DNA of 24,832 bases from Candidatus Kaiserbacteria bacterium RIFCSPLOWO2_01_FULL_55_19 (GTDB taxonomy: Bacteria > Patescibacteriota > Minisyncoccia > Phycocordibacterales > Phycocordibacteraceae), in assembly GCA_001781715.1 (NCBI GenBank), contig MFMD01000036.1, forward strand, positions 1 through 24,832. The letters run 5' to 3'. This document shows, piece by piece, positions 1,096-18,266 of this stretch; positions within the stretch are counted from its first letter, which is position 1, and every line of letters starts with the position of its first letter. The position numbers and the translations under genes are program-made. The notes below the pieces were generated by a model. It worked only from the letters and a program-made list of their open reading frames with translations, did no database searches and was not told the origin of the DNA.

Positions 1096-3192
1096 ATGCA
1101 AAGTCAATTCACGCTCCACCTGCCGTTTCAGCCCGCGGGCGACCAGCCGGCGGCGATAGAGGCGCTCATGCGAGGACTGAAAGAAGGTATGCACCACCAA
1201 ACGCTCTTTGGGGTGACCGGAAGCGGGAAGACGTTTACGATGGCAAATGTCATCGCGAAGAATGACAAGCCGACCTTGGTGCTCGCGCACAACAAGACAC
1301 TCGCCGCCCAGCTCGCACAGGAGTATCGTGAATTCTTCCCAAAGAACGTGGTGCATTACTTCGTTTCGTACTACGATTACTATCAACCGGAGGCCTATAT
1401 CGCGCACTCGGACACCTATATTGAGAAAGAGGCGATGATTAATGCCGAGATAGACCGCCTGCGCCACGCGGCAACGCAGGCCCTGCTCACGCGCAAGGAT
1501 GTCATCATTGTTGCTTCAGTTTCTGCTATCTACGGTCTCGGTTCGCCCGAGGAATATGAGAAAGTGCATGTCAAAATAGAGATGCAGGAGGCAGTAGCAG
1601 GAGGCAGGGGAGGGCTCATCAGGAAGCTTGTGGGCATCTATTTTGAACGCACGAATGCTGACCTCAATCCAGGACATCTCCGCGCCATTGGTAACTCGCT
1701 TGAGTTTATGCCGGTCAACGAGCGGGTGATGTATAAGGTGATATTTGATAATGATGTTGTCGCGCGTATAGAAAAACTTGACCCTGTCTCGCGCGCCAAG
1801 ATGGCGGAGCCGAAGTCGGTCTTCGTCTTCCCAGCGAAGCACTTCGTCAGTAGCGAAGAGGAGCGCGCTCGTGCGATAGAAGATATTAAGCTGGAACTTG
1901 ATGAACAGCTAGCAAAGTTTAAGAGAGAAGAGAAGCCGCTTGAGCATGAGCGCTTGAAACGTCGCACGCTCCACGACCTCGCTCTCATCCGCGAGCTCGG
2001 CTACACGAGCGGAATTGAGAATTACTCCCGCCACTTTGACGGGCGCGCTCCGGGCGAGCCGCCCTTCACGCTCCTCTCCTATTTCCCACATAAGAAAGAC
2101 GGTTCTGCGGATTTCCTTACGGTCATAGACGAGTCTCATGTGACCGTGCCGCAGATAGGCGGAATGTATGCGGGCGATAAGTCGCGTAAGGATGTGCTCG
2201 TTGAATACGGCTTCCGTCTCCCATCGGCGCGCGATAACCGACCACTCCGGTTTGAAGAGTTTGAGGAGCGCGTGGGGCAGGTGCTCTACACCAGCGCGAC
2301 ACCGGGGCCGTATGAAAAGAAACATTCAGAACAGATAGTGGAGCAAGTGATTCGTCCAACTGGCCTCATAGACCCCGAGCTCACCGTACGCCCCGTCTCC
2401 GAAGGACATCCGATGTCGCGGCCCGAAGTTGGACATCGGATGTCCAACTACCCGGGGCAGATTGCCGACTTTATCGCTGAAGCGGAGATAGTGATTAAGC
2501 GGAGCGGGCGCGCGCTCGCCACCACGCTGACCAAGCAGATGGCAGAGGATCTCGCCGCCTTCCTGCGCGAGAAGGGGATGAAGGCAGAGTATCTCCATTC
2601 GGACGTGAAGACGATTGACCGCATAGATATCCTGACCAAGTTCCGAAAGGGAGGATTTGATATCCTCGTCGGGGTGAACCTGCTTCGCGAGGGGCTGGAT
2701 CTGCCCGAGGTGGAGCTTGTCGGGATATTAGACGCAGATAAAGAGGGATTCCTGCGGAGCGAGACCTCGCTTATCCAGACCATCGGGCGCGCCGCCCGGA
2801 ACGTGCTCGGCAGGGTCATCCTCTACGCCGACCAGATGACGGGCTCGCTTGACCGCGCTATCGGCGAGACGAACCGCCGTAGAGAAAAGCAGATAGCGTA
2901 CAACACGAAGCACGGCATCACCCCGCTCACGATTAAGAAAGAGATTCACGACATCGCCGCGTCTATGCGCACTGAGCACCAGCGCACGATTGACGAGCTC
3001 CTCGTGCTGGACACGCTTGCTTACAAGGACGACCCGAAAGCATTTATCAAACGAAAGAAGGAAGAGATGGCAGAGGCGGTAGAGCAGCTGGACTTCGAGA
3101 CCGCCGCACTTATCAGGGACGAAATCTACAAGCTGGAAGGCACCGGCCCCAAGGCCCGCAAACCCCGCACCCGCAAACCTTTGTCTGGTTAG
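1096..3192 (+). CDS. uvrB: Excinuclease ABC subunit B
   Basis: Motifs PAGDQP, GVTGSGKT, HNKTLAAQL, YFVSYYDYYQPEAY, DESH, GVNLLREGLDLPEV and QTIGRAARN, plus a C-terminal UVR motif. Start placed at ATG 1096 (TATACT at 1084-1089); the 889 start is spurious. Confidence 0.98.
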   Translation: MQSQFTLHLPFQPAGDQPAAIEALMRGLKEGMHHQTLFGVTGSGKTFTMANVIAKNDKPTLVLAHNKTLAAQLAQEYREFFPKNVVHYFVSYYDYYQPEAYIAHSDTYIEKEAMINAEIDRLRHAATQALLTRKDVIIVASVSAIYGLGSPEEYEKVHVKIEMQEAVAGGRGGLIRKLVGIYFERTNADLNPGHLRAIGNSLEFMPVNERVMYKVIFDNDVVARIEKLDPVSRAKMAEPKSVFVFPAKHFVSSEEERARAIEDIKLELDEQLAKFKREEKPLEHERLKRRTLHDLALIRELGYTSGIENYSRHFDGRAPGEPPFTLLSYFPHKKDGSADFLTVIDESHVTVPQIGGMYAGDKSRKDVLVEYGFRLPSARDNRPLRFEEFEERVGQVLYTSATPGPYEKKHSEQIVEQVIRPTGLIDPELTVRPVSEGHPMSRPEVGHRMSNYPGQIADFIAEAEIVIKRSGRALATTLTKQMAEDLAAFLREKGMKAEYLHSDVKTIDRIDILTKFRKGGFDILVGVNLLREGLDLPEVELVGILDADKEGFLRSETSLIQTIGRAARNVLGRVILYADQMTGSLDRAIGETNRRREKQIAYNTKHGITPLTIKKEIHDIAASMRTEHQRTIDELLVLDTLAYKDDPKAFIKRKKEEMAEAVEQLDFETAALIRDEIYKLEGTGPKARKPRTRKPLSG
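2404..2449. repeat. Paired palindrome, copy in uvrB (GGACATCCGATGTC...AGTTGGACATCGGATGTCCAACT)
   Basis: Two GACATC-N-GATGTC cores start at 2405 and 2432. The second extends to a 23-nt palindrome (2427-2449). Encodes GHPMSRPEVGHRMSN. Confidence 0.9.
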
Positions 3193-3326
3193 AACTAGAA
3201 AAAGAAAATCTTGATAGCAATTGCCAGAACTAGAAGAAGGGTCACAATTGTCACCCAATTTATTTCCTTCAGTAATCCAAATAATCCCTCTTTTCAATAG
3301 GACTCATTTCTTAACTTTAGCATATC

Positions 3327-3335
3327 TGCTATACT
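3327..3335 (+). promoter_or_regulatory. Extended -10 promoter of uvrA (TGcTATACT)
   Basis: TG-n-TATACT 37 nt upstream of the uvrA ATG. Confidence 0.6.
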
Positions 3336-3348
3336 CATACCGTACCTG

Positions 3349-3370
3349 CCCCGCCACGGGCGGGGATTTT
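3349..3370 (+). terminator. GC-rich hairpin with a short T-tail in the uvrA leader
   Basis: CCCCGCC-ACG-GGCGGGG followed by ATTTT, immediately before the uvrA ATG. Confidence 0.45.
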
Positions 3371-3372
3371 CT

Positions 3373-6066
3373 ATGAAAAAGACCAAAGATAAACCTATGA
3401 AAGACCTCAGAGGTCCTTCATCTGATGAGCGACCTCCGAGGTCGAATGCGCACCGGCACGGAAGCGATTGGCTCGTGGTGAAAGGTGCGCGTACCCACAA
3501 CTTGAAGAACATTACGGTAGAGATGCCGCGTGGCGCGATGAGCGTCATCACCGGCCTCTCGGGGAGCGGTAAGTCCTCGCTCGCCTTTGACACCATCTTC
3601 GCCGAGGGGCAGCGGCGCTATGTAGAATCGCTCTCCGCATACGCGCGACAATTCCTGAATCAGATGGCGAAGCCGGATGTGGACGAGATTGTCGGGCTCT
3701 CGCCAGCAATTTCTATAGACCAGAAGAGCCGTTCCAATAACCCGCGCTCTACGGTGGCGACCGTGACCGAGATTTATGACTACCTGCGCGTCTTGTACGC
3801 GCGCGCCGGTCAGCCGTACTGCATTCATCACGATGTGCCCATAGTGCGCCTCTCCAAGGAGGAGATGATTAAACTCGTCTTTCAGCGAGTGGAGGCAGGG
3901 AGCAGGAGCAGTATGCAGGGACCCGAAGTGCTTGGTGTGGCGGTTGATAAACGCGCAGTCACTGTGTATGCACCAGTTGTTGTGGGGAGAAAGGGCGAGT
4001 ATTATCAGCTCCTCTACGACCTGCTTAGTAAGGGGTATGAAAAAGTTGTCGTTGATGGGAAGGTGCATTCGCTCCGGGAGAAGATTGTAATGGAGCGCAA
4101 TAAGGTGCACAGCATTGATGCGATTGTGGACTCTATCTTCGTTTCTGAATTCGCTCGTTCCACACAGGGCGCGCGCGAACGGCTCTCGGAGGCGCTTGAG
4201 CTCGCGCTGAAGCAGTCCGATGGACTGGTGAAGATTAAGCACGCCGACGGTACGCTGGAGACGCTCTCGGCGAAGTTCATCTGCCCCGAGGACGGTGCAT
4301 CGTTCCCCGAGGTGGAGCCACGCCTCTTCTCCTTCAACTCGCCCTACGGCGCTTGCCCTGCCTGCCACGGCCTCGGTACAGAGTCCCTTTTCTCTGAAGC
4401 GGTATGCCCCGTCTGTGAGGGGAAACGACTGCGCCCCGAAGCATTGCGCGTGTATCTCAAGAGCAAGAAGGATAAGACACTGGGCTCGAGCATTGTGGAC
4501 TTCACCAATATGTCCATCCGCGAAGCAAAGGATTTCGTAGATACCATCCAGCTTTCGGAGATGAAGCAGGATATCGCATTCCCTATTTTGAAAGAGATAG
4601 ACAGTCGTCTCACCTTTATGTTGAATGTCGGTCTGGACTATCTCACCCTGAATCGCTCGGCCGCAACCCTTTCGGGTGGCGAGGCACAGCGCATCCGCCT
4701 CGCCTCACAGCTCGGGAGTGGGCTTACGGGTGCCTTGTATGTGCTTGACGAACCGACTATCGGGCTCCATCAGCGCGATAATGACCGCCTCATCAAGACC
4801 CTTCTTACGCTCAAAGAACTCGGGAATACGATTATCGTCGTTGAGCACGACGAGGACACCATCTACTCCGCTGACTACCTCGTAGACATTGGTCCGGGCG
4901 CGGGCATACACGGAGGAACCGTCGTGGCCTCCGGTTGGTTAGACGATTTACTTACTGCGAAGAAGAATGACTCGGACTCGCTCACGCTTTCATACTTGCG
5001 ACAGGAGAAGGAAATACCAATGCCCGAGAAACGGCGCACGAGCGAGAAGGGTGCGATTAAAGTGCGCGGAGCGACCCTCCACAATCTGGTGAACCAGAAT
5101 ATTGATGTACCGCTCGGGAAGCTCGTCTGCATCACCGGCGTCTCGGGGAGCGGGAAGTCCACCTTCCTCTACGATATTTTGCATCGCAACATCGCGGCGC
5201 GCTTCGCCCGCCGCGAGGCGAAACTTGAGCACATCGCTTCCTTAACCGGTACCGAGTATGTCGGGCGCGCCGTACTCATTGACCAGTCGCCCATCGGCCG
5301 TACCCCGCGTTCTAACCCAGCGACCTATACAGGCGCTTTTACCCATATCCGCGATCTTTTCGCCGCCACCCCCGAGGCGCGCGCGAGAGGATGGAAGCCG
5401 GGCCGCTTTTCCTTCAATGTCCCCGGTGGCCGCTGCGAGGCGTGCCAAGGGAACGGCTCTATCGCGGTAGAGATGCACTTCTTGCCGACCGTGTATGTGA
5501 CCTGTGATATCTGCATGGGCATGCGATTTATGAAGGAGACGCTGGAGATTACCTTCCGCGGGAAGAATATCTATGAGGTGCTCCAGATGACGATTGAGGA
5601 GGCGGAGAAATTCTTCGGCGACATTCCGGCGATCAACGACCGCCTAATGAGTCTTAATTCAACCGGGCTCCAGTATCTCACACTTGGACAGAGCGCAACG
5701 ACGCTTTCGGGTGGCGAAGCGCAACGCGTGAAGATCGCGAGCGAGCTTTACCGCTCGCAGACGATGAAGACGATTTACTTGCTTGATGAACCAACAGTCG
5801 GTCTCCACTACGAGGATGTACACAAATTGATTGAAATCCTCCAAGAGCTTGTGCGGCGTGGGAATACAGTCGTCGTCATTGAACACAATCTCGATGTCGT
5901 GAAGAGCGCTGACCACATCATTGACTTCGGCCCCGAGGGCGGGCAGGGCGGTGGTAAAATCGTTGCCAAGGGTACGCCCGAAGAAGTCGCCGACACAGAC
6001 GGCTCTTATACCGGCGAATATCTTGCAAGAGCTCTCAAACATCATGCAAAAAAGCGATCTGCGTAA
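3373..6066 (+). CDS. uvrA: Excinuclease ABC subunit A (lacks the insertion domain)
   Basis: [10 protein letters not shown], two Walker A motifs ([18 protein letters not shown]), two LSGGEAQR signatures, LDEPT, and Zn-finger CEACQG...CDIC. Start may be 3373 or 3397. Confidence 0.98.
3403..3444. repeat. Paired palindrome, copy in uvrA N-terminus (GACCTCAGAGGTC...CGACCTCCGAGGTCG)
   Basis: Two GACCTC-N-GAGGTC cores start at 3403 and 3431. The spacer contains a third palindrome, TCATC-T-GATGA. Confidence 0.85.
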
Positions 6067-7309
6067 ATTAAATCTGCCGGATGTGCCGGGCGTATATCTC
6101 TTCAAACAGGGGAGGAAGGTGTTGTATGTCGGCAAGGCGACATCGCTCCGCGATCGCGTGCACTCCTATTTTGACGATGACCTTATAGCGACACGCGGGC
6201 CGCGCGTCGTGGATATGGTGACGAAGGCCGATCGCGTGAGTTATGAGCCGACACCAACCGTGCTTGAGGCGCTGGTGCGCGAGGCGGCGCTTATCAAGAA
6301 GTATTGTCCGAGTGCAAATGTGGATGGGAAAGATGACAAAACCTTTCTCTATGCAGTCATCACGAAGGAGGCGATACCGCGCGTGCTCGCTGTGCGCGGG
6401 AAAGATATAGATTTTCAGAGCAAAACCTACAACCTACAAACTACAATCTACAAACTGAAATCCATTTACGGACCGTTCCCGTCGGGCGCGCAGCTGCGCG
6501 AGGGTCTGCGGCTCATCCGCCGCATCTTTCCCTTCTTTGATATGTCGAAGCCGCTGGGAGCGAAAAGTAAGCATCAAGCGGCGAAGATAGAATTTAATAC
6601 ACAGATTAAACAGTACCCGCGCTCGTATGACGCGAGAGAATACGCGCGTACGATACGGCGCGTGATGCTCTTCTTAAGCGGGCGGGGAAAGGAGTTGCGC
6701 ACCATGCTTGAGCGGGAGATGCGGCAGGCCGCAAAGGACGAACGCTTTGAGGATGCGGCGGAGGCGCGCCGCGAACTTTTCGCACTCAATCATATCCAGG
6801 ATGTTTCTCTCATCAAGGACGAAGACGGATATCAAAAGAATGTACCGGTCGGTACAAAGCTTGGATACCGGATTGAAGCGTATGACACAGCACATCTCTC
6901 GGGGACGAACGCCATCGGCGTGATGACGGTAGTTGTTGACGGAGCGCCGGTTAAGAAGGAGTATCGAACCTTCCGTATTCGCGGCGTGCAAAAGAATGAC
7001 GACGTCGCTTCGCTCACCGAGATTCTCTCTCGCCGTTTGAAGCACCCCGAATGGCCGTTCCCGCAGGTTGTCATTGTTGACGGCGGAGTAGCCCAGAAGA
7101 GAGCGGCAGAGCGCGTACTCTCGAAAGAGGGCATTGCTATTACTGTCGCAGCGGTAGTAAAGGATGAGCGACATCGTCCACGCGAGGTTATCGGTGCGCG
7201 CCGCGCCGGCATCAGCGAAGTCGATGCGGTTCTCGCTAACAGCGAAGCGCACCGCTTCTCGCTCTCTCGCCATCGAATGGCTCGCTCGCGAGAGATGCAC
7301 TCGAAGTGA
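6044..7309 (+). CDS. uvrC: Excinuclease ABC subunit C, shortened (GIY-YIG + UVR + RNase H-like domains, no HhH tail)
   Basis: LPDVPGVYLF/YVGKA, EALVREAALIK, UVR motif (ERFEDAAEARR), RIEAYDTAH and IVDGG. ATG at 6044 overlaps the end of uvrA. Confidence 0.93.
   Translation: MQKSDLRKLNLPDVPGVYLFKQGRKVLYVGKATSLRDRVHSYFDDDLIATRGPRVVDMVTKADRVSYEPTPTVLEALVREAALIKKYCPSANVDGKDDKTFLYAVITKEAIPRVLAVRGKDIDFQSKTYNLQTTIYKLKSIYGPFPSGAQLREGLRLIRRIFPFFDMSKPLGAKSKHQAAKIEFNTQIKQYPRSYDAREYARTIRRVMLFLSGRGKELRTMLEREMRQAAKDERFEDAAEARRELFALNHIQDVSLIKDEDGYQKNVPVGTKLGYRIEAYDTAHLSGTNAIGVMTVVVDGAPVKKEYRTFRIRGVQKNDDVASLTEILSRRLKHPEWPFPQVVIVDGGVAQKRAAERVLSKEGIAITVAAVVKDERHRPREVIGARRAGISEVDAVLANSEAHRFSLSRHRMARSREMHSK
6424..6465 (+). 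repeat. Degenerate 7-nt tandem repeat AA(A/C/T)CTAC inside uvrC
   Basis: aacctac aacctac aaactac aatctac aaactga aatccat; encodes KTYNLQTTIYKLKS. Confidence 0.8.
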
Positions 7310-7334
7310 TTTGATATACACAGCACACAGAGAG

Positions 7335-7357
7335 ACGCCGAGGCCTCGGTGTAGAAT
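7335..7357 (+). promoter_or_regulatory. Palindrome abutting a TAGAAT -10 box
   Basis: ACGCCGAGG/CCTCGGTGT (7335-7352, perfect 12-nt core CCGAGGCCTCGG). TAGAAT at 7352-7357 lies 6 nt before ATG 7364. Confidence 0.6.
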
Positions 7358-7363
7358 CAAGCT

Positions 7364-7486
7364 ATGAAAACAAAAGCAGTGCGCAGTGCCATCACCGGGC
7401 GGTTTGTCCACAAAGGGAAGGCGACCGCCAATCCAAAAACGACCGTCACGCAAACACTTAGAACCGCAGGGCGGAAGCGCGGCTAG
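7364..7486 (+). CDS. 40-aa basic small protein (RSAITGRFV...PKTTV motif), not in the ORF track
   Basis: MKTKAVRSAITGRFVHKGKATANPKTTVTQTLRTAGRKRG. It has a -10 box 6 nt upstream and fills the uvrC-ddl gap. Confidence 0.8.
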   Translation: MKTKAVRSAITGRFVHKGKATANPKTTVTQTLRTAGRKRG

Positions 7487-7509
7487 TTTGTCCTTGGTAT
7501 ACTGAGGTG

Positions 7510-8472
7510 ATGCAAACCGTTGTTGGGGTACTGCGGGGCGGGCCGTCGCGCGAGCATGATATCTCGCTCAAGTCCGGCGCCGCGATACTCGCGCATCTCC
7601 CGGCAGACCGGTATATCACGCGCGATATTTATATCCACAGAAACGGAGAGTGGTACGATCGCGGCAAGCCAGTCGCACCCGAACGCATCCTACGTCAACT
7701 TGATGTCGTACTCATCGGGCTCCACGGCGAGTATGGCGAGGATGGGGAAGTGCAAAAGGTCCTTTCTCGCTTCGGCGTTCCTTATGCCGGTGCAGATTCC
7801 TTCGGCTCCTATCTCGCGATGCATAAGATGATGGCGAAGCTGCGGGCGAAAGAAGCCGGACTGCTCACGCCGGAATCTCACTACATCGAGCGCGCCGAAG
7901 ACAGCGAGGCGGGCGCGCGCGAAGCGATACGCAGGTTCCATCAGCCGGTTGTAGTGAAGCCGGTCGGCTGGGGCTCTTCTATCGGGGTGTCCATTGTGGG
8001 CGGGTACGCGCCCGTGGTCGCTGCTGTCAAGCAGCTTTTTGCCGATGGCGCTACCGGCGTGCTCGTAGAGGATCTCGTTCGCGGCAAGGAGGCGACGGTC
8101 AGCGTTGTTGAGAACCTTCGCGGACAAGCGTTGTATTCTCTCCCACCCACAGAAATCATTCCTCCCGAGGATGATTTCTTCTCCTACGGCGCAAAGTATT
8201 CTGGCGCGACGCGTGAAATCTGCCCGGGGAACTTCTCTCGTGTTGCCTCTGAAGAGCTTCAGCGTTTGGCGAAGGTAATGCATCGTGCTCTCGGCCTGCG
8301 TCATTACTCCCGAAGCGACTTTATCGTCGCACCGAAGGGCATTTATTATCTGGAGACCAATACGCTCCCGGGCCTCACGACCGAATCGCTTCTGCCAAAG
8401 TCGCTCGCCGCGGTAGGCGTTACCTTCCGCGATTTCCTCTCGCATCTGGTCAACCTCGCCCTCTCGCGTTAG
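7510..8472 (+). CDS. ddl: D-alanine--D-alanine ligase
   Basis: GGPSREHDISLKSG, LHGEYGEDG, VVKPVGWGSSIGV, FSYGAKY and ETNTLPGLT. TGGTATACT lies 6 nt before ATG 7510. Confidence 0.95.
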   Translation: MQTVVGVLRGGPSREHDISLKSGAAILAHLPADRYITRDIYIHRNGEWYDRGKPVAPERILRQLDVVLIGLHGEYGEDGEVQKVLSRFGVPYAGADSFGSYLAMHKMMAKLRAKEAGLLTPESHYIERAEDSEAGAREAIRRFHQPVVVKPVGWGSSIGVSIVGGYAPVVAAVKQLFADGATGVLVEDLVRGKEATVSVVENLRGQALYSLPPTEIIPPEDDFFSYGAKYSGATREICPGNFSRVASEELQRLAKVMHRALGLRHYSRSDFIVAPKGIYYLETNTLPGLTTESLLPKSLAAVGVTFRDFLSHLVNLALSR

Positions 8473-8486
8473 AGTAAAAAGCGCTC

Positions 8487-8559
8487 GGGCCTGTAGCTCA
8501 ATTGGTAGAGCGCCTCATTTGCAATGAGGAGGTAACCGGTTCGAAACCGGTCAGGTCCA
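8487..8559 (+). tRNA. tRNA-Ala(TGC)
   Basis: Cloverleaf with G3-U70 acceptor, anticodon arm CCTCA-TTTGCAA-TGAGG and GTTCGA T-loop. CCA not encoded. Confidence 0.97.
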
Positions 8560-8567
8560 CAAATTAT

Positions 8568-9098
8568 ATGAAGAAGATAATTGTCGCTTCAAAGAATCCA
8601 GTCAAAATAGCAGCTGCGCTCAGTGGTTTCCAGAAGATGTTTCCGCATGAGACGTTTGAGGTTGAGGGGGTATCAGCCCCTTCTGGCGTCGGCGAACAAC
8701 CGCGGAACGATACAGAAACGTTCACGGGTGCTCGCAATAGGGCGCAAAACGCTTCTAAAGAGGTCATCACTGCGGATTACTGGGTTGGTATTGAAGGTGG
8801 TATTGAAGAAAAGAATTCTGCTATGGAGGCGTTTGCATGGGTTGTTATACAGGCAAAAGGCGGCGCATATGGGAAGGGAAGAACAGGGACCTTTTTCTTG
8901 CCGCCAAAAATTGCTGAATTGATACAACAAGGGAAAGAGTTGGGGGAGGCAGACGACATTGTGTTTGGCAGAAGCAATTCAAAGCAAGGAAATGGAGCGG
9001 TAGGTATCTTGACGGGCGATGTGGTAGATAGAACCAAATACTATACGGAAGCCGTGGTATTCGCACTTATTCCGTTTAAAAACATCGAACTATATTAA
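8568..9098 (+). CDS. yjjX: Inosine/xanthosine triphosphatase (YjjX/DUF84 family)
   Basis: IIVASKNPVK, SGVGEQP, GARNRA, VGIEGGI, ELGEADDIVFG, K-GNGAVGILT and TRY-like C-terminal motifs. ATG at 8568. Confidence 0.92.
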   Translation: MKKIIVASKNPVKIAAALSGFQKMFPHETFEVEGVSAPSGVGEQPRNDTETFTGARNRAQNASKEVITADYWVGIEGGIEEKNSAMEAFAWVVIQAKGGAYGKGRTGTFFLPPKIAELIQQGKELGEADDIVFGRSNSKQGNGAVGILTGDVVDRTKYYTEAVVFALIPFKNIELY

Positions 9099-9106
9099 TA
9101 TCTTTG

Positions 9107-9177
9107 TCGGGCCGCCGGGAATCGAACCCGGTCTGCACGAACCCGAATCGTGCGTACTACCGGCATACTCCGGCCCG
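9107..9177 (-). tRNA. tRNA-Pro(CGG)
   Basis: C1-G72, A73, anticodon arm CACGA-TTCGGGT-TCGTG and GGTTCGATTCC T-arm. Confidence 0.95.
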
Positions 9178-9178
9178 G

Positions 9179-9252
9179 TGCGCTCCACAAGATTCGAACT
9201 TGTGACCTTTCGCGTGTGAGGCGAACGCTCTAACCAACTGAGCTAGGAGCGC
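9179..9252 (-). tRNA. tRNA-Val(CAC)
   Basis: Acceptor GCGCTCC/GGAGCGC, anticodon arm TTCGC-CTCACAC-GCGAA and GTTCGAATC T-loop. Confidence 0.96.
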
Positions 9253-9271
9253 GCAAGAGCACAATATCACA

Positions 9272-9342
9272 TCGGGCTACCGGGAATCGAACCCGGACTG
9301 CATGACCCCCAGCCATGCGTACTACCACTATACGATAGCCCG
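9272..9342 (-). tRNA. tRNA-Pro(GGG)
   Basis: Acceptor CGGGCTA/TAGCCCG, anticodon loop CTGGGGG and a canonical T-arm. Confidence 0.95.
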
Positions 9343-9456: not shown

Positions 9457-9463
9457 CAGTACG

Positions 9464-9784
9464 CTATACGATTTTCAGCGTATGAAGCAGGAAGAATCCG
9501 GCAATCATGCACACCGATAAGATGACAGCGACGGCTTCAGCGATGATAAACGCCGAGAGCCGCGGCGTATCACGCTTCAGCCGGAAGATGATGCTGAAGA
9601 AGGCGAATGTCCCGAGCGCAAGGACTCCTTTGCCGAGCCAGTGATGATAAAAAGTCACTTTGAGCCAATCCTTCAGCGCAGGGATTTCTTCTGCACCGAC
9701 AATAAGTGCGGCGAGAAGAAGAACGGTAACGATTGTCGCAATCGCAGTTGAACGAATCCACAGGGCAAGAGGTGAGGGCATCAT
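9464..9784 (-). CDS. Small polytopic membrane protein with an FYHHWLGKG motif
   Basis: About three hydrophobic helices. Its start overlaps the upstream stop (ATGA). Confidence 0.85.
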   Translation of the reverse strand: MMPSPLALWIRSTAIATIVTVLLLAALIVGAEEIPALKDWLKVTFYHHWLGKGVLALGTFAFFSIIFRLKRDTPRLSAFIIAEAVAVILSVCMIAGFFLLHTLKIV

Positions 9785-10730: not shown

Positions 10731-11311
10731 ATGCCTTGAGAGCCCAGCTCCTGCACCTGTGCCACCCATGCGGCGTGCTTTGCGGCATCCGGATGCTCGC
10801 ACGGACCCATGGTTGTCACCTGCGCGCTCATACCGGAGAAACCGAGGATGCCGCGCGATATCTCGTTTGTATAATCGCCGTACTTCAGGCGCGTCATAAA
10901 GGGACTCTGCGCTCCGTCAACGACGATGACACGCGCCGTTTTCCCTTTCAGCAGCTCTGCAATGTCGTGATTCTCTTTGCTGAAGGAAAAGGCAAAGTCA
11001 GGGAGCCACATTCGGTCAAACATTCCTTTCAAGAGCGCGGGCATACTTGTCCACCAATTCGGGTAGAGAATCACCACATGGTCGGCCCAGCGTATGTTCT
11101 CTTGCACGGTGACGAGATCGGGCTCCAGGGGCTGTATCTCGCGGTATCCCTTATGCAAAATCGGGTCGAACTTCAACTCGCCAAGGTTAAGTCGTCTCAC
11201 TTCATGACTTGCAGCGCGCGCTGCATGCTCGTAGGCATCGGCAAGTTCCGCTGTGAATCCTTGAGTATGAGAATGTCCAAGAAGTACGAAAATCTTGCGC
11301 GGATGATTCAT
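10727..11311 (-). CDS. Flavodoxin-fold NAD(P)H-dependent (quinone) oxidoreductase, Flavodoxin_2/KefF-NQO-like
   Basis: IFVLLGHS, LNLGELKFDPIL, WADHVVILYPNWWTSMPALLKGMFDR and LLKGKTARVI. ATG at 11311 with TATACT 6 nt upstream. Confidence 0.93.
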   Translation of the reverse strand: MNHPRKIFVLLGHSHTQGFTAELADAYEHAARAASHEVRRLNLGELKFDPILHKGYREIQPLEPDLVTVQENIRWADHVVILYPNWWTSMPALLKGMFDRMWLPDFAFSFSKENHDIAELLKGKTARVIVVDGAQSPFMTRLKYGDYTNEISRGILGFSGMSAQVTTMGPCEHPDAAKHAAWVAQVQELGSQGI

Positions 11312-11365
11312 AATCTTAGTATACCCTCTTGAGCAACAGAAGGAAGGGAAGTACAGTGGAGTAAA

Positions 11366-11436
11366 GGGCCTATGGTGAAGCGGTATCACGCATCCATGGC
11401 ATGGATGAAGTCGGGGTTCGACTCCCCGTAGGTCCA
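11366..11436 (+). tRNA. tRNA-Ala(GGC)
   Basis: G3-U70 acceptor and anticodon arm CATCC-ATGGCAT-GGATG, with the A32/U38 typical of Ala(GGC). Confidence 0.95.
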
Positions 11437-11447
11437 CAAAAATAAAG

Positions 11448-11474
11448 CGCCTGCGAGGCGGAGCCTCGCAGGCG
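11448..11474 (-). terminator. Intrinsic terminator between tRNA-Ala(GGC) and the lipoprotein gene
   Basis: Perfect 12-bp stem CGCCTGCGAGGC/GCCTCGCAGGCG. The T-rich tail (CTTTATTTT) is on the minus strand. Confidence 0.8.
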
Positions 11475-11485
11475 GGTTGAATCAT

Positions 11486-11968
11486 TCATTCAATACGGTT
11501 CCATGTCGGATCAACGGATTCGATGCTAACGATGCAATTCCCGTGAGAGTTGAAGCGGACGCGGAACGCCCGTGTATAGTTGTATCGGTCGTCATCGATA
11601 TAGAACATCCTCTTCACGGTGACAATTTTTGTGTGCGGGTCGGAGGTGTCGTCGATGACGCTGAACAGAGTGCACGCACAGCCGTCGTTCTCACCGGAAA
11701 CTGGATTCGCCAATATCTGACGGACAATTTCTTGTCCCCGCTCCCCCTTGTTGTCGAAGACTCCGAAAATAGAAGCTCCATCGGGAATGAGCGCCCGCAG
11801 AATGCCGATACTCGTTTCTGCGACGCCGCGGAACCATTGAACGACGGCGTTGCGGGGTGTGTCGCTACATTGTTTGATACTCCCATCGTCACGGACTGTT
11901 GTTGCACACGACGAGAGGAGTATCGATGCGGCTACTGTCATGAGGAACCTCACTGCAAACGGTCTCAT
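11486..11968 (-). CDS. Putative lipoprotein, unknown function
   Basis: Signal peptide ending LLSSC (lipobox-like), GGAGGAG SD 5 nt before ATG, and a downstream terminator. Confidence 0.8.
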   Translation of the reverse strand: MRPFAVRFLMTVAASILLSSCATTVRDDGSIKQCSDTPRNAVVQWFRGVAETSIGILRALIPDGASIFGVFDNKGERGQEIVRQILANPVSGENDGCACTLFSVIDDTSDPHTKIVTVKRMFYIDDDRYNYTRAFRVRFNSHGNCIVSIESVDPTWNRIE

Positions 11969-12048
11969 CGCATCTCCTCCTTTAAGCGAAATTGCGGGTG
12001 GTGGAAGGTACTTCTGCTTAGACTACAATACAATACATTCTGGACATA

Positions 12049-12081
12049 AACACACCGTCCGCCAAAGGCGGGCGGTGTGTT
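12049..12081 (-). terminator. Terminator of the SWIB gene
   Basis: 15-bp stem AACACACCGTCCGCC-AAA-GGCGGGCGGTGTGTT, just after the stop at 12099. Confidence 0.75.
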
Positions 12082-12098
12082 CACGCAGGAGCCCCTGA

Positions 12099-12347
12099 TT
12101 AGCTCAAATGCGGACCGATGAGACTTCCCATCTCGAACATCGTCACTTCGCCCTTGCCAAAAATGGCCTTAAGCTTCTCGTCGCAAAGGATATTACGCTT
12201 ATTCTCCGGATTCTGGAGATTATGATTCTTGATGTATACCCAAAGCTGTTTAACGACTTCGGTGCGAGGCATTGGCCCCTTGCCCACAACTGCCTCAAGG
12301 TCGGCTGAGAGCTTCTGTGGTTTTGCGAATGCTGAATTTGTTGCCAT
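12099..12347 (-). CDS. Stand-alone SWIB/MDM2-domain protein
   Basis: AFAKPQKLSADLEAVVG-GPMPRTEVVKQLWVYIK-HNLQNPENKRNILCDEKLKAIF. ATG at 12347. Confidence 0.93.
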   Translation of the reverse strand: MATNSAFAKPQKLSADLEAVVGKGPMPRTEVVKQLWVYIKNHNLQNPENKRNILCDEKLKAIFGKGEVTMFEMGSLIGPHLS

Positions 12348-12474
12348 AGTGAATGTTACTGGTATTAAGACTAACTTCCCCCAGTATATAGCATAGGAAA
12401 GCCTGTTTCCACAGGGCCGTGGACTATTCCCCTTGGGGGCTTGCGACGTCCACAGAAGGCGTATACTGGGGCAT

Positions 12475-12909
12475 ATGAGCTTCAACGAGGATGGCGGGAA
12501 CGAAGGGAACGGGGGGATGCGGGTGCCCCCGCGCCATGACATACCCCACTATTACGGTAATGAGTCGCGGGCGCTCTTTGTCGCGGGCGCCGTAGTGCTT
12601 GTCATCGCACAGTCAACCGGCGCCGACCTACCGCTCTCAACCGGCGCCGCTGTGATGGCGGCGGTACTCCTTGTTGTCGCCGCGGGGATTACTAATCCCG
12701 CACAAGGGTGGATTCATTGGCTGAACGCATTCATCGCCATCTACGGAGTGCTCCTCTTCGGCACAACTGCCATCAGCCACTACCGTTCGGGTATAAGCAT
12801 CTTTAACCCTTCGTTCTTCTATATTGAGGCGCTTACGCTCATCGCTCTCATCGCGCTCTACTTCACGACCCGCACCATTCGGGGATTCCATCTGCGCGAT
12901 ACCCTTTGA
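12475..12909 (+). CDS. Hypothetical membrane protein (about 4 TM helices)
   Basis: Hydrophobic helices; TATACT 7 nt before ATG 12475. Confidence 0.85.
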   Translation: MSFNEDGGNEGNGGMRVPPRHDIPHYYGNESRALFVAGAVVLVIAQSTGADLPLSTGAAVMAAVLLVVAAGITNPAQGWIHWLNAFIAIYGVLLFGTTAISHYRSGISIFNPSFFYIEALTLIALIALYFTTRTIRGFHLRDTL

Positions 12910-12945
12910 TAGAGGCGAAAACCGTCTCCGTGCTACACTTTCTCT

Positions 12946-13176
12946 ATGTCTATCCAGAGTTTTCTCCTCAATCAGTACACGAAGTGGAAGTTGAAGGATG
13001 TTCCCGAGGCGCAGCGCGAGCAGATGACCGCGCTCGTGATTAAGGATCCGCAACTCTTTAAGAAAATCGGTGAGGAGATTGAACGCCGCAAGAAGGGCGG
13101 CGAGAGCGAGACGAAAGCGGCGCTTGAAGTGATGAAGAAGTACCGTACCGAGCTTGCCGCGCTCATGCAACGATAA
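12946..13176 (+). CDS. 76-aa helical hypothetical protein
   Basis: TGcTACACT 6 nt before ATG; normal codon pattern. Confidence 0.85.
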   Translation: MSIQSFLLNQYTKWKLKDVPEAQREQMTALVIKDPQLFKKIGEEIERRKKGGESETKAALEVMKKYRTELAALMQR

Positions 13177-13177
13177 T

Positions 13178-13681
13178 ATGCTGCCCTTCATCTTTCTCCT
13201 TGTTTTCTTTCAGGCGCTTGGCGCGCTCGTCGGCGCATTTTCAGCAGTGTGGAGCGAGCTCGCTTATGTGCGGATGATGCGAGACGGGCGGATTGACCAC
13301 GCCGAGCGCGCGCATCTAGACTACATTGGACACGGTCTGCGCTGGGGTATGTCGCTCCTCTTTCTCGCCTCGTTCGGCTTAGTAGTCGTCTCCTACCTCC
13401 TTCAGGCAGCGACACAGCCGGCGCTCACTGCTCAGTACTGGCTCTTCATCATGCTCGGTCTTCTGGTGACGACGGCATCGTGGGCACTCTCGCGAAAACA
13501 GGTCTCTTTCAAGTTGGGTACCGCCGTCACTTTCACCGGATGGTGGTTTCTCGTCTTTCTTACGCTCGGTCAGATGCCGCCGCTCTCCTTCGGCGCGAGC
13601 ATTGCCTTCTTCGTTATTGCAACGGCGATCTTCTACGCTCTGCTCCACTATGCGCGACTTCTTATGGTGCGCGGGAAATAG
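13178..13681 (+). CDS. Polytopic membrane protein, apparent paralog of 10227-10730
   Basis: ATG lies 1 nt after the previous stop. Shares the pattern G..(L/V)G...(A/F).E..Y....D.....ER..L......GL..L..S. Confidence 0.85.
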   Translation: MLPFIFLLVFFQALGALVGAFSAVWSELAYVRMMRDGRIDHAERAHLDYIGHGLRWGMSLLFLASFGLVVVSYLLQAATQPALTAQYWLFIMLGLLVTTASWALSRKQVSFKLGTAVTFTGWWFLVFLTLGQMPPLSFGASIAFFVIATAIFYALLHYARLLMVRGK

Positions 13682-13716
13682 TGGCAGAGCGGGACAAAAT
13701 CCTGTAGGTTGGGAAG

Positions 13717-14814
13717 ATGTTGAAGATAGGAATTGTCGGATTGCCGAACGTGGGGAAGTCCACGCTTTTTAATGCACTCACGAAAGCGTCAGTACCGGCG
13801 GAGAATTACCCGTTCTGCACCATTGACCCTTCGGTCGGTGTTGTTGGCGTGCCCGATGCGCGACTCGCGCTCCTCACTCAGTTCTCAAAGAGCGCGAAGA
13901 CCATCCCTGCCGCGATAGAGTTCGTGGATATTGCGGGGCTAGTGAAGGGTGCCGCCGAAGGGGAAGGGCTCGGGAATCAATTTCTCGCGAATATCCGCGA
14001 GACCGACGCAATCCTCCAAGTCGTCCGCTTCTTTGATGACCCGAATATCGTCCATGTGGACAGCGAAGTGGAGCCCTATAAGGATATTGAGGTGATTAAC
14101 CTGGAGCTTGCGCTCGCTGACGGGGAACAAGTTAGGAAACGCCGGGATAAGATTGCGGGCGATATTAGGTCCGGCCGGGAGGAGTTTGTTGCCGAAGATG
14201 CCGCGCTCGCCAAGGTGATGCAGGCCTTTGCGGCAGGGAAGCTCGCGCTCCATGCAGGCCTCACCGAGGACGAGAAGAAGCTCGTGGCGCACCTAAATCT
14301 CCTCACGATGAAGCCGATTCTCTATGCGCTGAACAGGAAAAGTGGCGGACACAATCTGGACGAGCTTGCAGATGGGCGCGCCGAGCGCGCCTATGACCTC
14401 ATCAAAATGCTTGGAGGCCGGTACATCTTCCTTGATGCGGCGACGGAGCGGGAACTGAACGATGTTGCGGATGACGACCGCGAGGGATTCCGCCAAGAGC
14501 TCGACGTCTCCGAAGACGGTCTTGCTGGGCTTATCCGCGGTGCCTATGAAACGCTCGGGCTTATTTCATTCTTCACCACCGGAGAGGACGAGACGCGTGC
14601 ATGGACGATTACGAGGGGGAGTACCGCGCCCGTGGCGGGCGCGGCAATTCACAACGACTTCCTCACGAAATTCATCCGCGCTGAAGTAGTCTCTACGGAC
14701 GATCTTCTCGCCGCTGGTAGCTACGCCGCCGCCCGCGAAGCCGCAAAAGTCGCTACCTGCGGCAAGGACTACATCGTCCGCGACGGCGATGTCATCATCT
14801 TCCTTCACGGATAA
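13717..14814 (+). CDS. ychF: Redox-regulated ATPase YchF
   Basis: GIVGLPNVGKSTLFNALT, NYPFCTIDP, FVDIAGLVKGA, GLGNQFLANIRE and a C-terminal TGS-like segment (FFTTGEDETRAW, DGDVI). Confidence 0.97.
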   Translation: MLKIGIVGLPNVGKSTLFNALTKASVPAENYPFCTIDPSVGVVGVPDARLALLTQFSKSAKTIPAAIEFVDIAGLVKGAAEGEGLGNQFLANIRETDAILQVVRFFDDPNIVHVDSEVEPYKDIEVINLELALADGEQVRKRRDKIAGDIRSGREEFVAEDAALAKVMQAFAAGKLALHAGLTEDEKKLVAHLNLLTMKPILYALNRKSGGHNLDELADGRAERAYDLIKMLGGRYIFLDAATERELNDVADDDREGFRQELDVSEDGLAGLIRGAYETLGLISFFTTGEDETRAWTITRGSTAPVAGAAIHNDFLTKFIRAEVVSTDDLLAAGSYAAAREAAKVATCGKDYIVRDGDVIIFLHG

Positions 14815-14834
14815 AAATGGTATAATCTGAATCT

Positions 14835-15788
14835 ATGGACAAACCCAAAACAACAGCGAAGGATTTCTTCTTGTGGACGGGGGCGATGGTTACCTTTTAT
14901 TGGAGCACTATCGCATTCATTCTCCTCACGTTCGATTACATTAACTACTCATTTCCGAACGCGCTTTCGTATTATCCCGCCGATCCATATCAGAGCGGCA
15001 TTAGTTACGAAATGGCGTCTATCATTGTGCTGTTCCCAATCTATCTTCTTCTGATGAAGCTTATTCACGGAAATATTTCTCGGGACCCTTCTCGAAATGA
15101 AATTTGGGTTCGCCGCTGGGCGCTCATACTGACGCTCTTTGTTGCAGGCGTGGCGATAGCGGTTGACCTCATCATGCTTCTCACGACCTTCCTCAATGGC
15201 GAAGCGCTCACGATAGCGTTTTTGCTCAAAGTGCTCATCATCTTTCTTGTCGCGGCGGGAGTCTTTATGCACTTCATCGCTGACCTGAAAGGATATTGGG
15301 ATACATTTCCGGCGCGAAGGAACATGGTGCGCATCGGCGTCGCGGTTCTCGCTGTCGCAACGATAGGTTCCGGCTTCTTTATTGTCGGGACGCCGGCAGA
15401 GGCCCGTCTCGCACGCTTTGACGCGCAGAAGGTGAGCGACCTTCAGAACATCCAGTCACAAGTTGTGTATTACTGGCAGGCGAAGCGAGCATTACCGGCA
15501 ACGATTACTGACCTGAATAATTCGCTCAACTACGGCCCGATACCGGTGGACCCTGAAACAGGAGCGTCGTATGAGTATCAATCGACCGGAGCGCTCTCCT
15601 TCAAGCTTTGCGCCACCTTCAACGCACAGAGTCGTGGGAATCAGAATGCGTATTCCGAGACCCGAGTACTTGCACCGATGCCAGTTGATGCTAAAGGTAT
15701 GCTCGCGGATAACTGGCAGCACTCCGCAGGTACGGTGTGTTTCGACCGCACCATTGACCCAAGCTTCTATCCGCCGCTAAAGAACTGA
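14835..15788 (+). CDS. DUF5671-like membrane protein with a C-terminal pilin/GspG-like exported domain
   Basis: N-terminal KTTAKDFFL and five or more TM helices. The C-terminus reads D..KVSDLQNIQ...YYW...LP..L...DPETG..YEY...F.LCATF. Family assignment is from recall. Confidence 0.75.
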   Translation: MDKPKTTAKDFFLWTGAMVTFYWSTIAFILLTFDYINYSFPNALSYYPADPYQSGISYEMASIIVLFPIYLLLMKLIHGNISRDPSRNEIWVRRWALILTLFVAGVAIAVDLIMLLTTFLNGEALTIAFLLKVLIIFLVAAGVFMHFIADLKGYWDTFPARRNMVRIGVAVLAVATIGSGFFIVGTPAEARLARFDAQKVSDLQNIQSQVVYYWQAKRALPATITDLNNSLNYGPIPVDPETGASYEYQSTGALSFKLCATFNAQSRGNQNAYSETRVLAPMPVDAKGMLADNWQHSAGTVCFDRTIDPSFYPPLKN

Positions 15789-15794
15789 GTTTGA

Positions 15795-18266
15795 ATGGAA
15801 AAGTACGATCATGGGAGCATAGAAAAAGCGGCCCAAGAAAAATGGGCAGAGCTTAATCTCTACACCACTAATCTCACAGACGAGTCCAAGGAACCCTACT
15901 ATCTCCTCACCGAGTTCCCGTATCCCTCCGGCGACCTTCATATCGGCCATTGGTACGCCTTCGCGGTGACCGACATCTACGCGCGTCTCCTGCGCCAGCG
16001 CGGGAAGAATGTGCTCTTCCCGATAGGATTTGATGCCTTCGGCCTGCCCGCGGAAAATGCCGCGATTAAGAACAATCTGGACCCAAAGGAGTGGACATAT
16101 ACGAATATGGAGCGGATGCGCGAGCAAATCGCCAGCATGGGCGCATCATTTGATTGGAGCAAGGAGGTGGTGACCTGTGAGCCAAGCTACTACCAGTGGA
16201 CGCAGTGGTTCTTTACCAAGTTCTTTGAGCATAAGCTCGCTGAACACCGTGAGGCACCAGTGAAGTGGTGTCCCGAGGACCAGACCGTACTTGCAAATGA
16301 ACAAGTTATTGATGGTCACTGCGAACGGTGTGGCTCTGCGGTAGAGGAGAAGCGGCTCACGCAGTGGTTCTTGAAGATTACCGACTATGCCGAGCGCCTC
16401 TTGAATGGACTAGATGCGCTCCCGTGGCGCGAAGAGATTAAGGAAGCCCAGCGCGCATGGATTGGGAAGAGCGAAGGCGCGAAGCTGAAATTCAAGATAG
16501 CAGGAGTAGTAGGTAGTGAGCAGGAGATAGAAGTGTTTACCACACGCCCCGACACTATCTTTGGCGCCACGTATATAGTGCTTGCACCCGAGCATCCGCT
16601 CATAGCAGAGTTATTGAATGTCGGGACGTCGTACGTCCCGACATTAGGAAATCATGAAGTTGTCAAAGCGTATGTAAAAACAACTGCGCAAAAGACTGAG
16701 AGAGAGCGCAGTGAGAATAAAGAGAAGACGGGTGTGAATCTTGAGGGCGTTATGGCGATTAATCCGGCGACCAAGGAAGAAATCCCCATTTTCGTCGCTG
16801 ACTATGTGCTCGCTTCCTACGGCACAGGCGCGGTGATGGCGGTTCCCGCCCATGACGAACGCGACTTTGAATTCGCACAGAAATTTAATCTACCTATCAA
16901 GCCAGTGATTATGGGTGGTGGCAGTGTTCAAATCGGATGGTCGATTGAAAAATGGGGAGACGAGTGGAACGATTGGTACGAAAAAGCAGGAAAGTTAATC
17001 AACTCGGGAGAATTCACAGGCAAGAACAGCGAAGAGGTGAAGTGGGATATTGTCGCGTTTGTCGGCGGAGAGAAGGCGACGCAGTACCGTATTCGCGACT
17101 GGCTCATCTCCCGCCAGCGCTACTGGGGCTGCCCCATCCCGATTGTGTATGACACGCTCGGGAAGCCGCATGCGATTTCTGCCGAACACTTGCCGTGGCT
17201 CCTGCCGACTGATGTTGACTTCACCCCAACAGGTCAAGCGCCGCTGGCTTCTTCCAAGGAGTTGAAGGAGCGGGTTACCAAGTTATTCGGCGAGGGATGG
17301 ACGCCGGAGTATGACACGTTGGATACCTTCGCCGATTCCTCGTGGTACTTTCTGCGGTACCTGAACCCGAAGGATGTCCACAACTTCTCTGACGCCGCGC
17401 TGATGAAGAAGTGGCTCCCGATTAACCGCTACTCGGGCGGGAGCGAGCACACCACGATGCATCTCTTGTACGCGCGATTCTTTATGAAGGCACTTTATGA
17501 CCTCGCACTCGTGTCGGTTGACGAACCGTTTACCGAGCGCTTCAACCGTGGACTCATTCTCGGTCCCGATGGCCAGAAGATGAGTAAGTCAAAAGGAAAT
17601 GTCCTGAATCCCGATGAATTTGTGCAGAAGTATGGTGCAGACGCGGTACGCATCTATCTCGCCTTCATCGGCCCCTATAACGAGCCGGGAAGTTATCCGT
17701 GGAATCTGGACGGTGTTGCCGCAATGCGTAAGTTTCTTGAGCGTGTCACACGCCTCATTGAAAGGTTAGGACATCCGATGTCCAAGTCTGCGGAGGACAT
17801 CGGATGTCCGGCCCACATTCAGCAGGCGCTTGGGCATGCCATAACGAAAGTTTCTGACGACAGTGATCGATTTAAGTTTAATACGGCTGTTTCGGCATTG
17901 ATGACCCTTCTTAATGCACTTGAGGCGGAGCCGACAGTGTCATCTGGGACGGCAAAGATATTTACCATTCTGCTCGCGCCGTTTGCGCCGCATCTGGCTG
18001 AACATCTTTGGGAGAAGCTTGGCGGAGAGGGGAGTGTGCACCAACAGCCATGGCCAGTAGCGGCCGAAGCGGTTATTTCTGAGCGAGAAATTGTCGTACA
18101 GGTAAACGGCAAGCGCCGCGGCTCCGTCACACTGCCCGCTGACGCATCAGAGGCGGATGCCGTAACGGCCGCACGCGCCATCCCGACGGTTGTCGCGACG
18201 CTTGGTGGGAAAGAGCCCGTTCGGCAGGTCTATGTGCCTGGGAAAATCCTCAATTTTGTGGTGTAA
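15795..18266 (+). CDS. leuS: Leucine--tRNA ligase
   Basis: FPYPSGDLHIGH, editing domain FTTRPDT/GTGAVMAVPAHDERD, WLISRQRYWG, DTFADSSWY and KMSKS. Confidence 0.98.
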   Translation: MEKYDHGSIEKAAQEKWAELNLYTTNLTDESKEPYYLLTEFPYPSGDLHIGHWYAFAVTDIYARLLRQRGKNVLFPIGFDAFGLPAENAAIKNNLDPKEWTYTNMERMREQIASMGASFDWSKEVVTCEPSYYQWTQWFFTKFFEHKLAEHREAPVKWCPEDQTVLANEQVIDGHCERCGSAVEEKRLTQWFLKITDYAERLLNGLDALPWREEIKEAQRAWIGKSEGAKLKFKIAGVVGSEQEIEVFTTRPDTIFGATYIVLAPEHPLIAELLNVGTSYVPTLGNHEVVKAYVKTTAQKTERERSENKEKTGVNLEGVMAINPATKEEIPIFVADYVLASYGTGAVMAVPAHDERDFEFAQKFNLPIKPVIMGGGSVQIGWSIEKWGDEWNDWYEKAGKLINSGEFTGKNSEEVKWDIVAFVGGEKATQYRIRDWLISRQRYWGCPIPIVYDTLGKPHAISAEHLPWLLPTDVDFTPTGQAPLASSKELKERVTKLFGEGWTPEYDTLDTFADSSWYFLRYLNPKDVHNFSDAALMKKWLPINRYSGGSEHTTMHLLYARFFMKALYDLALVSVDEPFTERFNRGLILGPDGQKMSKSKGNVLNPDEFVQKYGADAVRIYLAFIGPYNEPGSYPWNLDGVAAMRKFLERVTRLIERLGHPMSKSAEDIGCPAHIQQALGHAITKVSDDSDRFKFNTAVSALMTLLNALEAEPTVSSGTAKIFTILLAPFAPHLAEHLWEKLGGEGSVHQQPWPVAAEAVISEREIVVQVNGKRRGSVTLPADASEADAVTAARAIPTVVATLGGKEPVRQVYVPGKILNFVV
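16617..16645. repeat. 29-nt palindrome inside the leuS editing domain
   Basis: AATGTCGGGACGT-CGT-ACGTCCCGACATT with perfect 13-bp arms; encodes NVGTSYVPTL. Confidence 0.85.
17769..17809. repeat. Paired palindrome, copy in leuS (GGACATCCGATGTCC-N11-GGACATCGGATGTCC)
   Basis: The two 15-mers are reverse complements of each other and each is self-palindromic. Encodes GHPMSKSAEDIGCP. Confidence 0.9.

Follow-up and report, generated by a model that had tools for sequence, protein, structure and literature searches.

The 24,832-nt stretch of DNA analysed here (the window) is contig MFMD01000036.1 (C36) of the assembly GCA_001781715.1 (G000) of Candidatus Kaiserbacteria bacterium RIFCSPLOWO2_01_FULL_55_19, and it carries pairs of short palindromes in frame inside the genes uvrB, uvrA and leuS. 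These paired palindromes are very probably non-autonomous hairpin repeats of the type known as REPs (repetitive extragenic palindromes) and REPINs (REP doublets forming hairpins). Each family would form a "REPtron" with its own bracketed gene for a Y1/HUH protein resembling REP-associated tyrosine transposases (RAYTs), and this RAYT-like enzyme would be the one that mobilises the repeats. The host assembly comprises 426 kb in 39 contigs with a completeness of 84%; the genome itself is about 0.5 Mb and the genomes of relatives 0.5-1 Mb. For one gene of this genome the nearest named relative is a Candidatus Adlerbacteria genome, and the sequencing runs in which the window sequence was found come from groundwater and soil metagenomes of 2015-16. 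The organism thus belongs to the Patescibacteria.

Six matches to the pattern GACMTCNGAKGTC occur in the window, at 2405, 2432, 3403, 3431, 17770 and 17796. They form one pair per gene, with a core-to-core spacing of 27 nt in uvrB, 28 nt in uvrA and 26 nt in leuS, and stand exactly where an earlier reading made from the letters and open reading frames (ORFs) of this DNA, called here the sequence-only reading, had placed them. No match was obtained in dinucleotide-preserving shuffles of the window (0/100), and the whole genome contains 11. Likewise, five palindromes with a stem of at least 11 bp were observed in the window compared to 0.1 in codon-block shuffles. Combined, the two kinds of shuffle rule out chance and codon bias, and more copies were found across the genome and the genus. 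A known RNA family was ruled out as the identity of the palindromes, as an Rfam search of the window returned six tRNAs only and no RNA family at the palindromes.

The core in uvrB and leuS is the 15-mer GGACATC[C/G]GATGTCC, which extends at some copies to a palindrome of 23-33 bp (for example 2427-2449 and C9:2023-2055). Within each pair the centre base is C in the first core and G in the second, and the two cores are therefore inverted copies. A doublet consists of two inverted copies of a 15-25 bp palindrome that fold as one 15-bp hairpin. In single-stranded DNA (ssDNA), copy 1 is predicted to pair with copy 2 with energies of -16.2 (uvrB), -11.4 (uvrA) and -17.9 kcal/mol (leuS); none of 200 shuffles was as stable, and z ranged from -4 to -6 for uvrB and leuS. 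The host genes and elements of the window are as follows.

889-3192, + strand: uvrB host gene (ORF as listed).
3373-6066, + strand: uvrA host gene, with an N-terminal tail MKK..HGSDWL conserved in the genus.
15795-18266, + strand: leuS host gene, with elements of two families at two sites.
2398-2452, no strand assigned: family A REPIN-like doublet in the uvrB linker, with cores at 2404-2418 (GGACATCCGATGTCg) and 2431-2445 (GGACATCGGATGTCC).
3397-3444, no strand assigned: family D REPIN-like doublet in the translated uvrA N-terminal tail, encoding 16 amino acids (aa).
16617-16645, no strand assigned: single family B REP, AATGTCGGGACGTcgtACGTCCCGACATT, at the entry of the LeuS editing domain, translated as NVGTSYVPTL.
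17766-17812, no strand assigned: family A REPIN-like doublet in LeuS, before the anticodon-binding helices, with cores at 17769-17783 and 17795-17809.

The second uvrB core lies within the 23-bp palindrome at 2427-2449 and the doublet stretch is translated as SEGHPMSRPEVGHRMSNYP. The true start of uvrB is probably further downstream than that of the listed ORF, because orthologue matches begin only at residue ~58-72. The uvrA doublet is made up of the 25-mer ATGAAAGACCTCAGAGGTCCTTCAT (3397-3421), the spacer palindrome TCATCTGATGA (3418-3428), which is the third palindrome described by the sequence-only reading, and CGACCTCCGAGGTCG (3430-3444). As the uvrA tail is conserved in the genus, this doublet lies in coding sequence. 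The family B palindrome of leuS, overlooked by that reading, is 29 nt long with 13-bp arms. The leuS doublet is translated as LGHPMSKSAEDIGCPA, with its two cores in different frames. The peptide GHPMS is present in both UvrB and LeuS and the second leuS core is read as DIGCP, as had been noted, and the second UvrB core gives GHRMS. Since family A copies occur in each of the three frames (giving GHPMS, DIGCP and RTSDV), the constraint acts on the nucleic acid and not on the peptide, as the sequence-only reading had proposed, and a peptide-level motif is ruled out.

An assembly or adapter artefact is ruled out, as the elements are spanned by contigs of other runs and the repeat is present in dozens of genomes. 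In independent assemblies of other public groundwater runs, those of run X1 covered 17648-18764 with 0 differences. Run X6 covered 16340-16816, also with 0 differences, and 2027-2821, where there was 1. Palindromes also coincide with the ends or starts of contigs (G000:C8:16-44; a contig of run X3 starts at window position 16617). Hairpin repeats seem to break short-read assemblies and, because contigs start or stop at palindromes, the copy numbers given below are probably underestimates.

A genome-wide scan of G000 sorted the palindromes into four families.

Family A, AAGTYGGACATC-S-GATGTCCRACTT (GGACATC-S-GATGTCC): hosts uvrB, leuS, gltX and recG; 8 exact 15-mers and 1 degenerate copy.
Family B, ATGTCGGGACGT-nnn-ACGTCCCGACAT: hosts leuS, a holB-like gene and its own RAYT-like gene; 6 copies.
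Family C, CGGAAGGTC-W-GACCTTCCG: hosts lepA and a glycosyltransferase gene; 7 copies.
Family D, ATGAAAGACCTC-N-GAGGTCTTTCAT: host uvrA; 2 copies.

The paired architecture described for the three loci of the window was thus borne out, but not their membership of a single family: uvrB and leuS carry family A and uvrA carries family D. The A to C and T to G differences of uvrA, which had been taken for a pairing-preserving variant, rather separate two families, each with its own transposase-like gene. A palindrome in tgt at 375-394, CCGGGACGTACCGTTCCCGG, begins with the same 10 nt (CGGGACGTAC) as family B and has the appearance of a decayed member of it.

Three genes matching PF01797 (Y1_Tnp) are present in G000, two on contig C9 and one on C19, each being the only Y1/HUH gene of its palindrome family. 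The earlier statement that no mobiliser is present holds for the window; the three candidates lie elsewhere in the genome, and the look for RAYT/TnpA(Y1)-like genes suggested by the sequence-only reading thus had a positive outcome.

C9:2056-2700: RAYT-like Y1/HUH gene with family A copies on both sides (2023-2055 and 2714-2746).
C9:9222-9893: RAYT-like Y1/HUH gene with family B copies on both sides and a third in frame.
C19:4378-5091: RAYT-like Y1/HUH gene with family C copies on both sides.

The copies flanking each of the three genes are inverted, with complementary centre bases. Genes flanked by the uvrA type of repeat were found in two other genomes of the genus: the RAYT-like gene of G068 is bracketed by ATGAAAGACCTC(A/T)GAGGTCTTTCAT, identical at 24 of 25 positions to window 3397-3421, and another RAYT-like gene, in G034, is bracketed by family D cores. 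Within the genus, a private palindrome was present on both sides of every RAYT-like gene examined.

The RAYT-like proteins are 214-237 aa long and the only NCBIfam match of the three is the REP-associated tyrosine transposase model NF047646 (30.9, 27.7 and 32.5 bits). In an alignment of 20 homologues, H69 and H71 (the HUH motif) and Y129 are invariant. A search of the PDB with a single RAYT-like protein gave no match; the profile of the 20 homologues alone reached ISDra2 TnpA (2XM3, E 6e-4), with the HUH motif and the catalytic Tyr aligned, and E. coli TnpA-REP (4ER8, E 0.015).

Some RAYT-like genes are themselves closely interwoven with their repeats. The family B and family D genes hold their own palindrome in frame at an equivalent protein position, read as MSGRTTSRH and MKDLRGLSF; within the C9 gene this family B palindrome lies at 9720-9746. 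In G068 the flanking palindrome provides the ATG of the RAYT-like gene and overlaps its stop codon. At C9:2701-2760 the upstream family A copy is located between TTGCAT and TATACT boxes, 8 nt before the ATG of the RAYT-like gene; this position inside a likely promoter suggests self-regulation.

The distribution of genes and repeats was analyzed in a comparison set of 61 genomes of the genus. PF01797 matches are present in 38/61 genomes, with at most 10 per genome. The family A 15-mer is found in 24/61, in 1-20 copies each and with many doublets 25-35 nt apart, and a reversed control pattern of family A was found in 0/61. Both the RAYT-like gene and family A are present in 23 genomes, the gene only in 15, family A only in 1 and neither in 22 (Fisher p 8e-6, a figure inflated by kinship as related genomes are not independent). 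Family D occurs in 7/61 genomes, often as doublets with a 28 nt spacing. In named genomes of Patescibacteria, 77 homologous loci were compared: 42 of them are flanked on either side by perfect palindromes that match each other, and a hairpin accompanies a further 25 on at least one side. A DNA uptake sequence is ruled out, as the density of about one copy per 25-50 kb is far too low and copies flank Y1 genes. In G054 and G001, variants of family A ending in CCTAA give the stop codon of miaA (...LGHPMS*); judged from these sequences, the repeat is also located on gene ends.

The sites of insertion were compared with those of orthologues and were empty or shorter in the orthologues at 5/5 places checked. 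In UvrB, most orthologues read RPV(S/V)E-TGEYK-GQ, the empty site, and the window version is 12 aa longer. Relative to solved UvrB structures an 18-residue insert separates residues 413 and 414, on the boundary that precedes the last helicase domain. The UvrA doublet is common to the window and G010, the site of G005 is empty, and the gain in the window is 18 aa. In LeuS the gain is 7 aa at 16617. At 17769, a site of variable length among orthologues where the window version is the longest, it is 3 to 8 aa, and GltX gains 4 aa. These comparisons, together with the presence of the repeat in multiple copies in the genome and genus, the use of all three frames and the bracketed Y1/HUH genes, support the selfish REP-like element tolerated in coding DNA that the sequence-only reading had inferred.

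Away from the RAYT-like genes, 16/17 copies in G000 are in frame inside genes, which is about what random landing would give in such a gene-dense genome. The eight host genes, on contigs C36, C39, C37, C21, C29 and C6 and identified by Pfam where they lie elsewhere in the genome, are uvrA, uvrB, recG, a holB-like gene, leuS, gltX, lepA and a glycosyltransferase gene. The sites are mostly at domain borders, such as wedge/helicase in RecG, G domain/domain II in LepA and catalytic/anticodon domain in GltX. Four of the eight hosts (uvrA, uvrB, recG and holB) are DNA repair or replication genes, a count unweighted for gene length or linker content. The frames are open, the host genes are single-copy and the orthologues are shorter; the elements are thus predicted to be translated as extra loops. 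Family A in its C9 form and family B are stop-free in all frames; family D, like the common GTTAGG variant of family A, is interrupted by stops in several frames. This rules out elements designed to be stop-free and indicates that survival is a filter and not a design, the surviving copies being a filtered subset.

The uvrB linker carries different palindromes in other species.

G010: palindrome with a 14-bp stem.
G009: doublet of GGTTTCGTAAACC.
G013: lengthened version of the G009 palindrome.
G018: doublet with a 19-bp stem.
G007: decayed copy of a palindrome present also in a glycosyltransferase gene of G000.

The G009 palindrome also brackets a RAYT-like gene in G009. In a UvrB phylogeny from which the loop was masked, 4 to 8 changes of the insertion state are required, the minimum of 4 being imposed by well-supported branches; in G008, the sister of the window genome, the site is empty. 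Hairpins are moreover found next to each other: recG of G047 has an extra palindrome beside the doublet, families A and D stand side by side in G041, and uvrA of G010 has a further palindrome after the doublet.

These data can be accommodated in the following scheme. The RAYT-like enzyme would bind the hairpin on ssDNA, cut and rejoin it, so that single copies or inverted doublets spread. In a genome of about 0.5 Mb with almost no intergenic DNA, most copies would land in genes. Those that survive would be the in-frame, stop-free copies located in protein linkers and tails, which would then be translated as short extra loops. Sites that already bear a hairpin may attract or retain further hairpins, resulting in the turnover seen at the uvrB linker.

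Several observations weigh against this scheme. Firstly, the RAYT-like proteins (28-32 bits) are far under the cut-off of 80 bits of the curated RAYT equivalog, and the Pfam Y1_Tnp scores are 32.8, 17.7 and 25.9 bits for a cut-off of 23, one of the three being below it. Given these scores, the proteins are, judged from their sequences, members of the superfamily and not RAYT equivalogs. Secondly, the 84% complete assembly G000 yielded no RAYT-like gene for family D, and the palindromes at the uvrB sites of G010 and G018, for which cognates were sought, are single or near-single copy in their own genomes. Thirdly, no transposition or excision event was seen, and no clean empty-site joint was present in the contigs assembled from four public runs, although contigs drop rare variants. 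Fourthly, the net length gain is smaller than the element at every site. Simple whole-unit insertion therefore does not explain every site, and the old loop was partly overwritten or later deleted. Finally, a comparison of orthologous recG doublets in three species showed differences at about 2/60 core positions while the flanks had diverged by roughly 20-25%, and an extra process is thus needed, either renewal by re-insertion or conversion, or selection on the DNA hairpin.

The last two points are also those that favour the main rival, conversion-type spread. By templated repair or gene conversion, short patches of loop codons would be rewritten from another copy, and the Y1/HUH protein would only nick or bind hairpins with no RAYT-catalysed insertion of a discrete unit. 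The turnover of content at the uvrB site between species with no large length change is likewise in its favour. However, all tested sites are longer than the empty orthologue, indicating that DNA was added, and the family-specific doublet spacing of 26-28 nt recurs at unrelated loci and genomes as for a discrete mobile unit. We therefore regard conversion as an unlikely account of the repeats.

The low scores and the profile matches bear on another explanation, in which each Y1/HUH gene together with its hairpin ends would be an ordinary, autonomous element of the IS200/IS605 type and the solo palindromes would be palindrome-associated transposable elements (PATEs), resembling miniature inverted-repeat transposable elements, and not a domesticated RAYT/REP pair. 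The two systems share the Y1/HUH superfamily, the recognition of hairpins on ssDNA and the existence of short non-autonomous hairpin derivatives. The profile matches ISDra2 TnpA slightly better than TnpA-REP, the proteins score under the RAYT equivalog cut-off and the genomes of the genus have up to 10 such genes. IS200/IS605 elements have distinct left and right subterminal hairpins, are present as several identical copies of the whole IS and often carry tnpB. In contrast, there is here a single-copy gene for each palindrome family, with the identical inverted palindrome at both ends and no distinct left and right ends. The proteins of 214-237 aa are larger than the canonical TnpA of ~140-170 aa, which in the genus score 100-133 bits. 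The RAYT-like genes have GAPDH, aldolase and surface protein genes as neighbours, and no tnpB was found beside them in G000 when the neighbouring genes were examined. This explanation is accordingly given little credence.

Host-function sites, i.e. operators of a dimeric regulator or sites for gyrase or a nucleoid protein that would be regulatory and not selfish, are the least credible alternative and highly improbable: they would suit the symmetric paired layout, the copy overlapping the promoter of the C9 RAYT-like gene and the share of repair and replication genes among the hosts, which echoes a reported bias (PMC3733652), but the sites are mid-gene at positions that differ between species, are missing from close orthologues, are patchy over the genus, can have unrelated palindromes in their place and have no linked regulator gene, so that the paired sites for a dimeric DNA-binding protein offered by the sequence-only reading are unsupported.

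The case is of the same kind as the REPs inside genes described in 2013 by Di Nocera, De Gregorio and Rocco (PMC3733652), singles and dimers that encode 20-30 aa. Many of their hosts are genes for excision repair (uvrA, uvrB, uvrD), recombination, tRNA synthetases and tRNA-modification enzymes, and different REPs were found near one recB site in two Xanthomonas species (PMC3733652). As for these GTAG/CGTC REPs, in-frame singles and dimers are present here in uvrA, uvrB and other repair, replication and tRNA synthetase genes. The feet of the hairpins, AAGTCGG, AAGTTGG, GTTAGG or CTAGG, are GTAGG-like, and no invariant tetranucleotide in the manner of the GTAG/CGTC tag was found among them. In Proteobacteria, Opitutus and Rickettsia the families are large and extragenic, with a minority of intragenic copies (PMC3733652), whereas intragenic copies are the majority here, in a genus of Patescibacteria with genomes of about 0.5-1 Mb, and one uvrB linker site carries at least 5 different palindromes across species.

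In Proteobacteria, both REPtrons and doublets of the REPIN type are established (PMC3116915; Pseudomonas REPINs). The present system resembles them in its singles and inverted doublets folding as one hairpin, in the single-copy Y1/HUH gene bracketed by its own inverted repeat, in the presence of several families with their own enzymes in one genome and in the conservation of HUH and the catalytic Tyr. It differs in its distant (28-32 versus 80 bits) and longer (~215-240 aa) proteins, in its perfect palindromes with centres of 1-3 nt and 2-20 copies, in that nearly all dispersed copies are intragenic and not extragenic, and in that enzyme genes can hold their own repeat in frame. Taken together, the differences from known systems are the phylum, the divergent and longer enzyme subfamily, the perfect low-copy palindromes, the intragenic dominance and the turnover of families at one linker. 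No paper treating RAYTs (REP-associated tyrosine transposases) together with Patescibacteria or the Candidate Phyla Radiation was found in a search that left most subscription journals outside.

Rickettsia palindromic elements (RPEs) are likewise in-frame palindromes of housekeeping genes in a reduced genome that are translated as extra surface segments. The classic RPE-1 is ~100-150 bp long without a linked transposase. The elements described here, in contrast, are 25-55 bp long and have cognate Y1/HUH genes. Some RPEs have been equated with intragenic REPs (PMC3733652).

Unusual "insertions" in the essential proteins of such ultra-small bacteria are thus probably footprints of hairpin repeats and their enzymes and not lineage-specific adaptations, which is relevant to annotators and structural modellers of such proteins. 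The genus would also provide a compact natural system for the choice of hairpins by Y1/HUH proteins and the tolerance of proteins to random loops, with many enzyme/hairpin pairs, small genomes, and empty and filled sites among close relatives. The recurrence of repair and tRNA synthetase genes as hosts, seen in Proteobacteria in 2013, is testable in this genus. A wider proposal, which we consider rather doubtful and advance only tentatively, is that RAYT-like enzymes with private hairpins are a main, hitherto undescribed source of extra loops and length differences in conserved housekeeping proteins of Patescibacteria, with linkers such as the UvrB domain border as recurrent landing pads on which hairpin families succeed each other and copies kept letter-perfect by the enzyme instead of decaying. 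In that case a mobile repeat would be writing part of the sequence of the proteome.

Some further features were noted in the window. The hairpin CCGTACCTGCCCCGCCACGGGCGGGG at 3340-3365 follows a -10 box (TATACT) and precedes the start codon of uvrA. It is conserved in the genus, with a similar structure in sister families, is single-copy in G000 and has no Rfam match; it has the look of a uvrA leader or operator element and not of a terminator. LeuS of many congeners is 914-1135 aa long, with ~150 extra residues between window residues ~373 and ~395, and the window LeuS of 823 aa is a short form. In uvrC, TGTACCGgtCGGTACA at 6841-6856 is a weak palindrome of 7 bp only.

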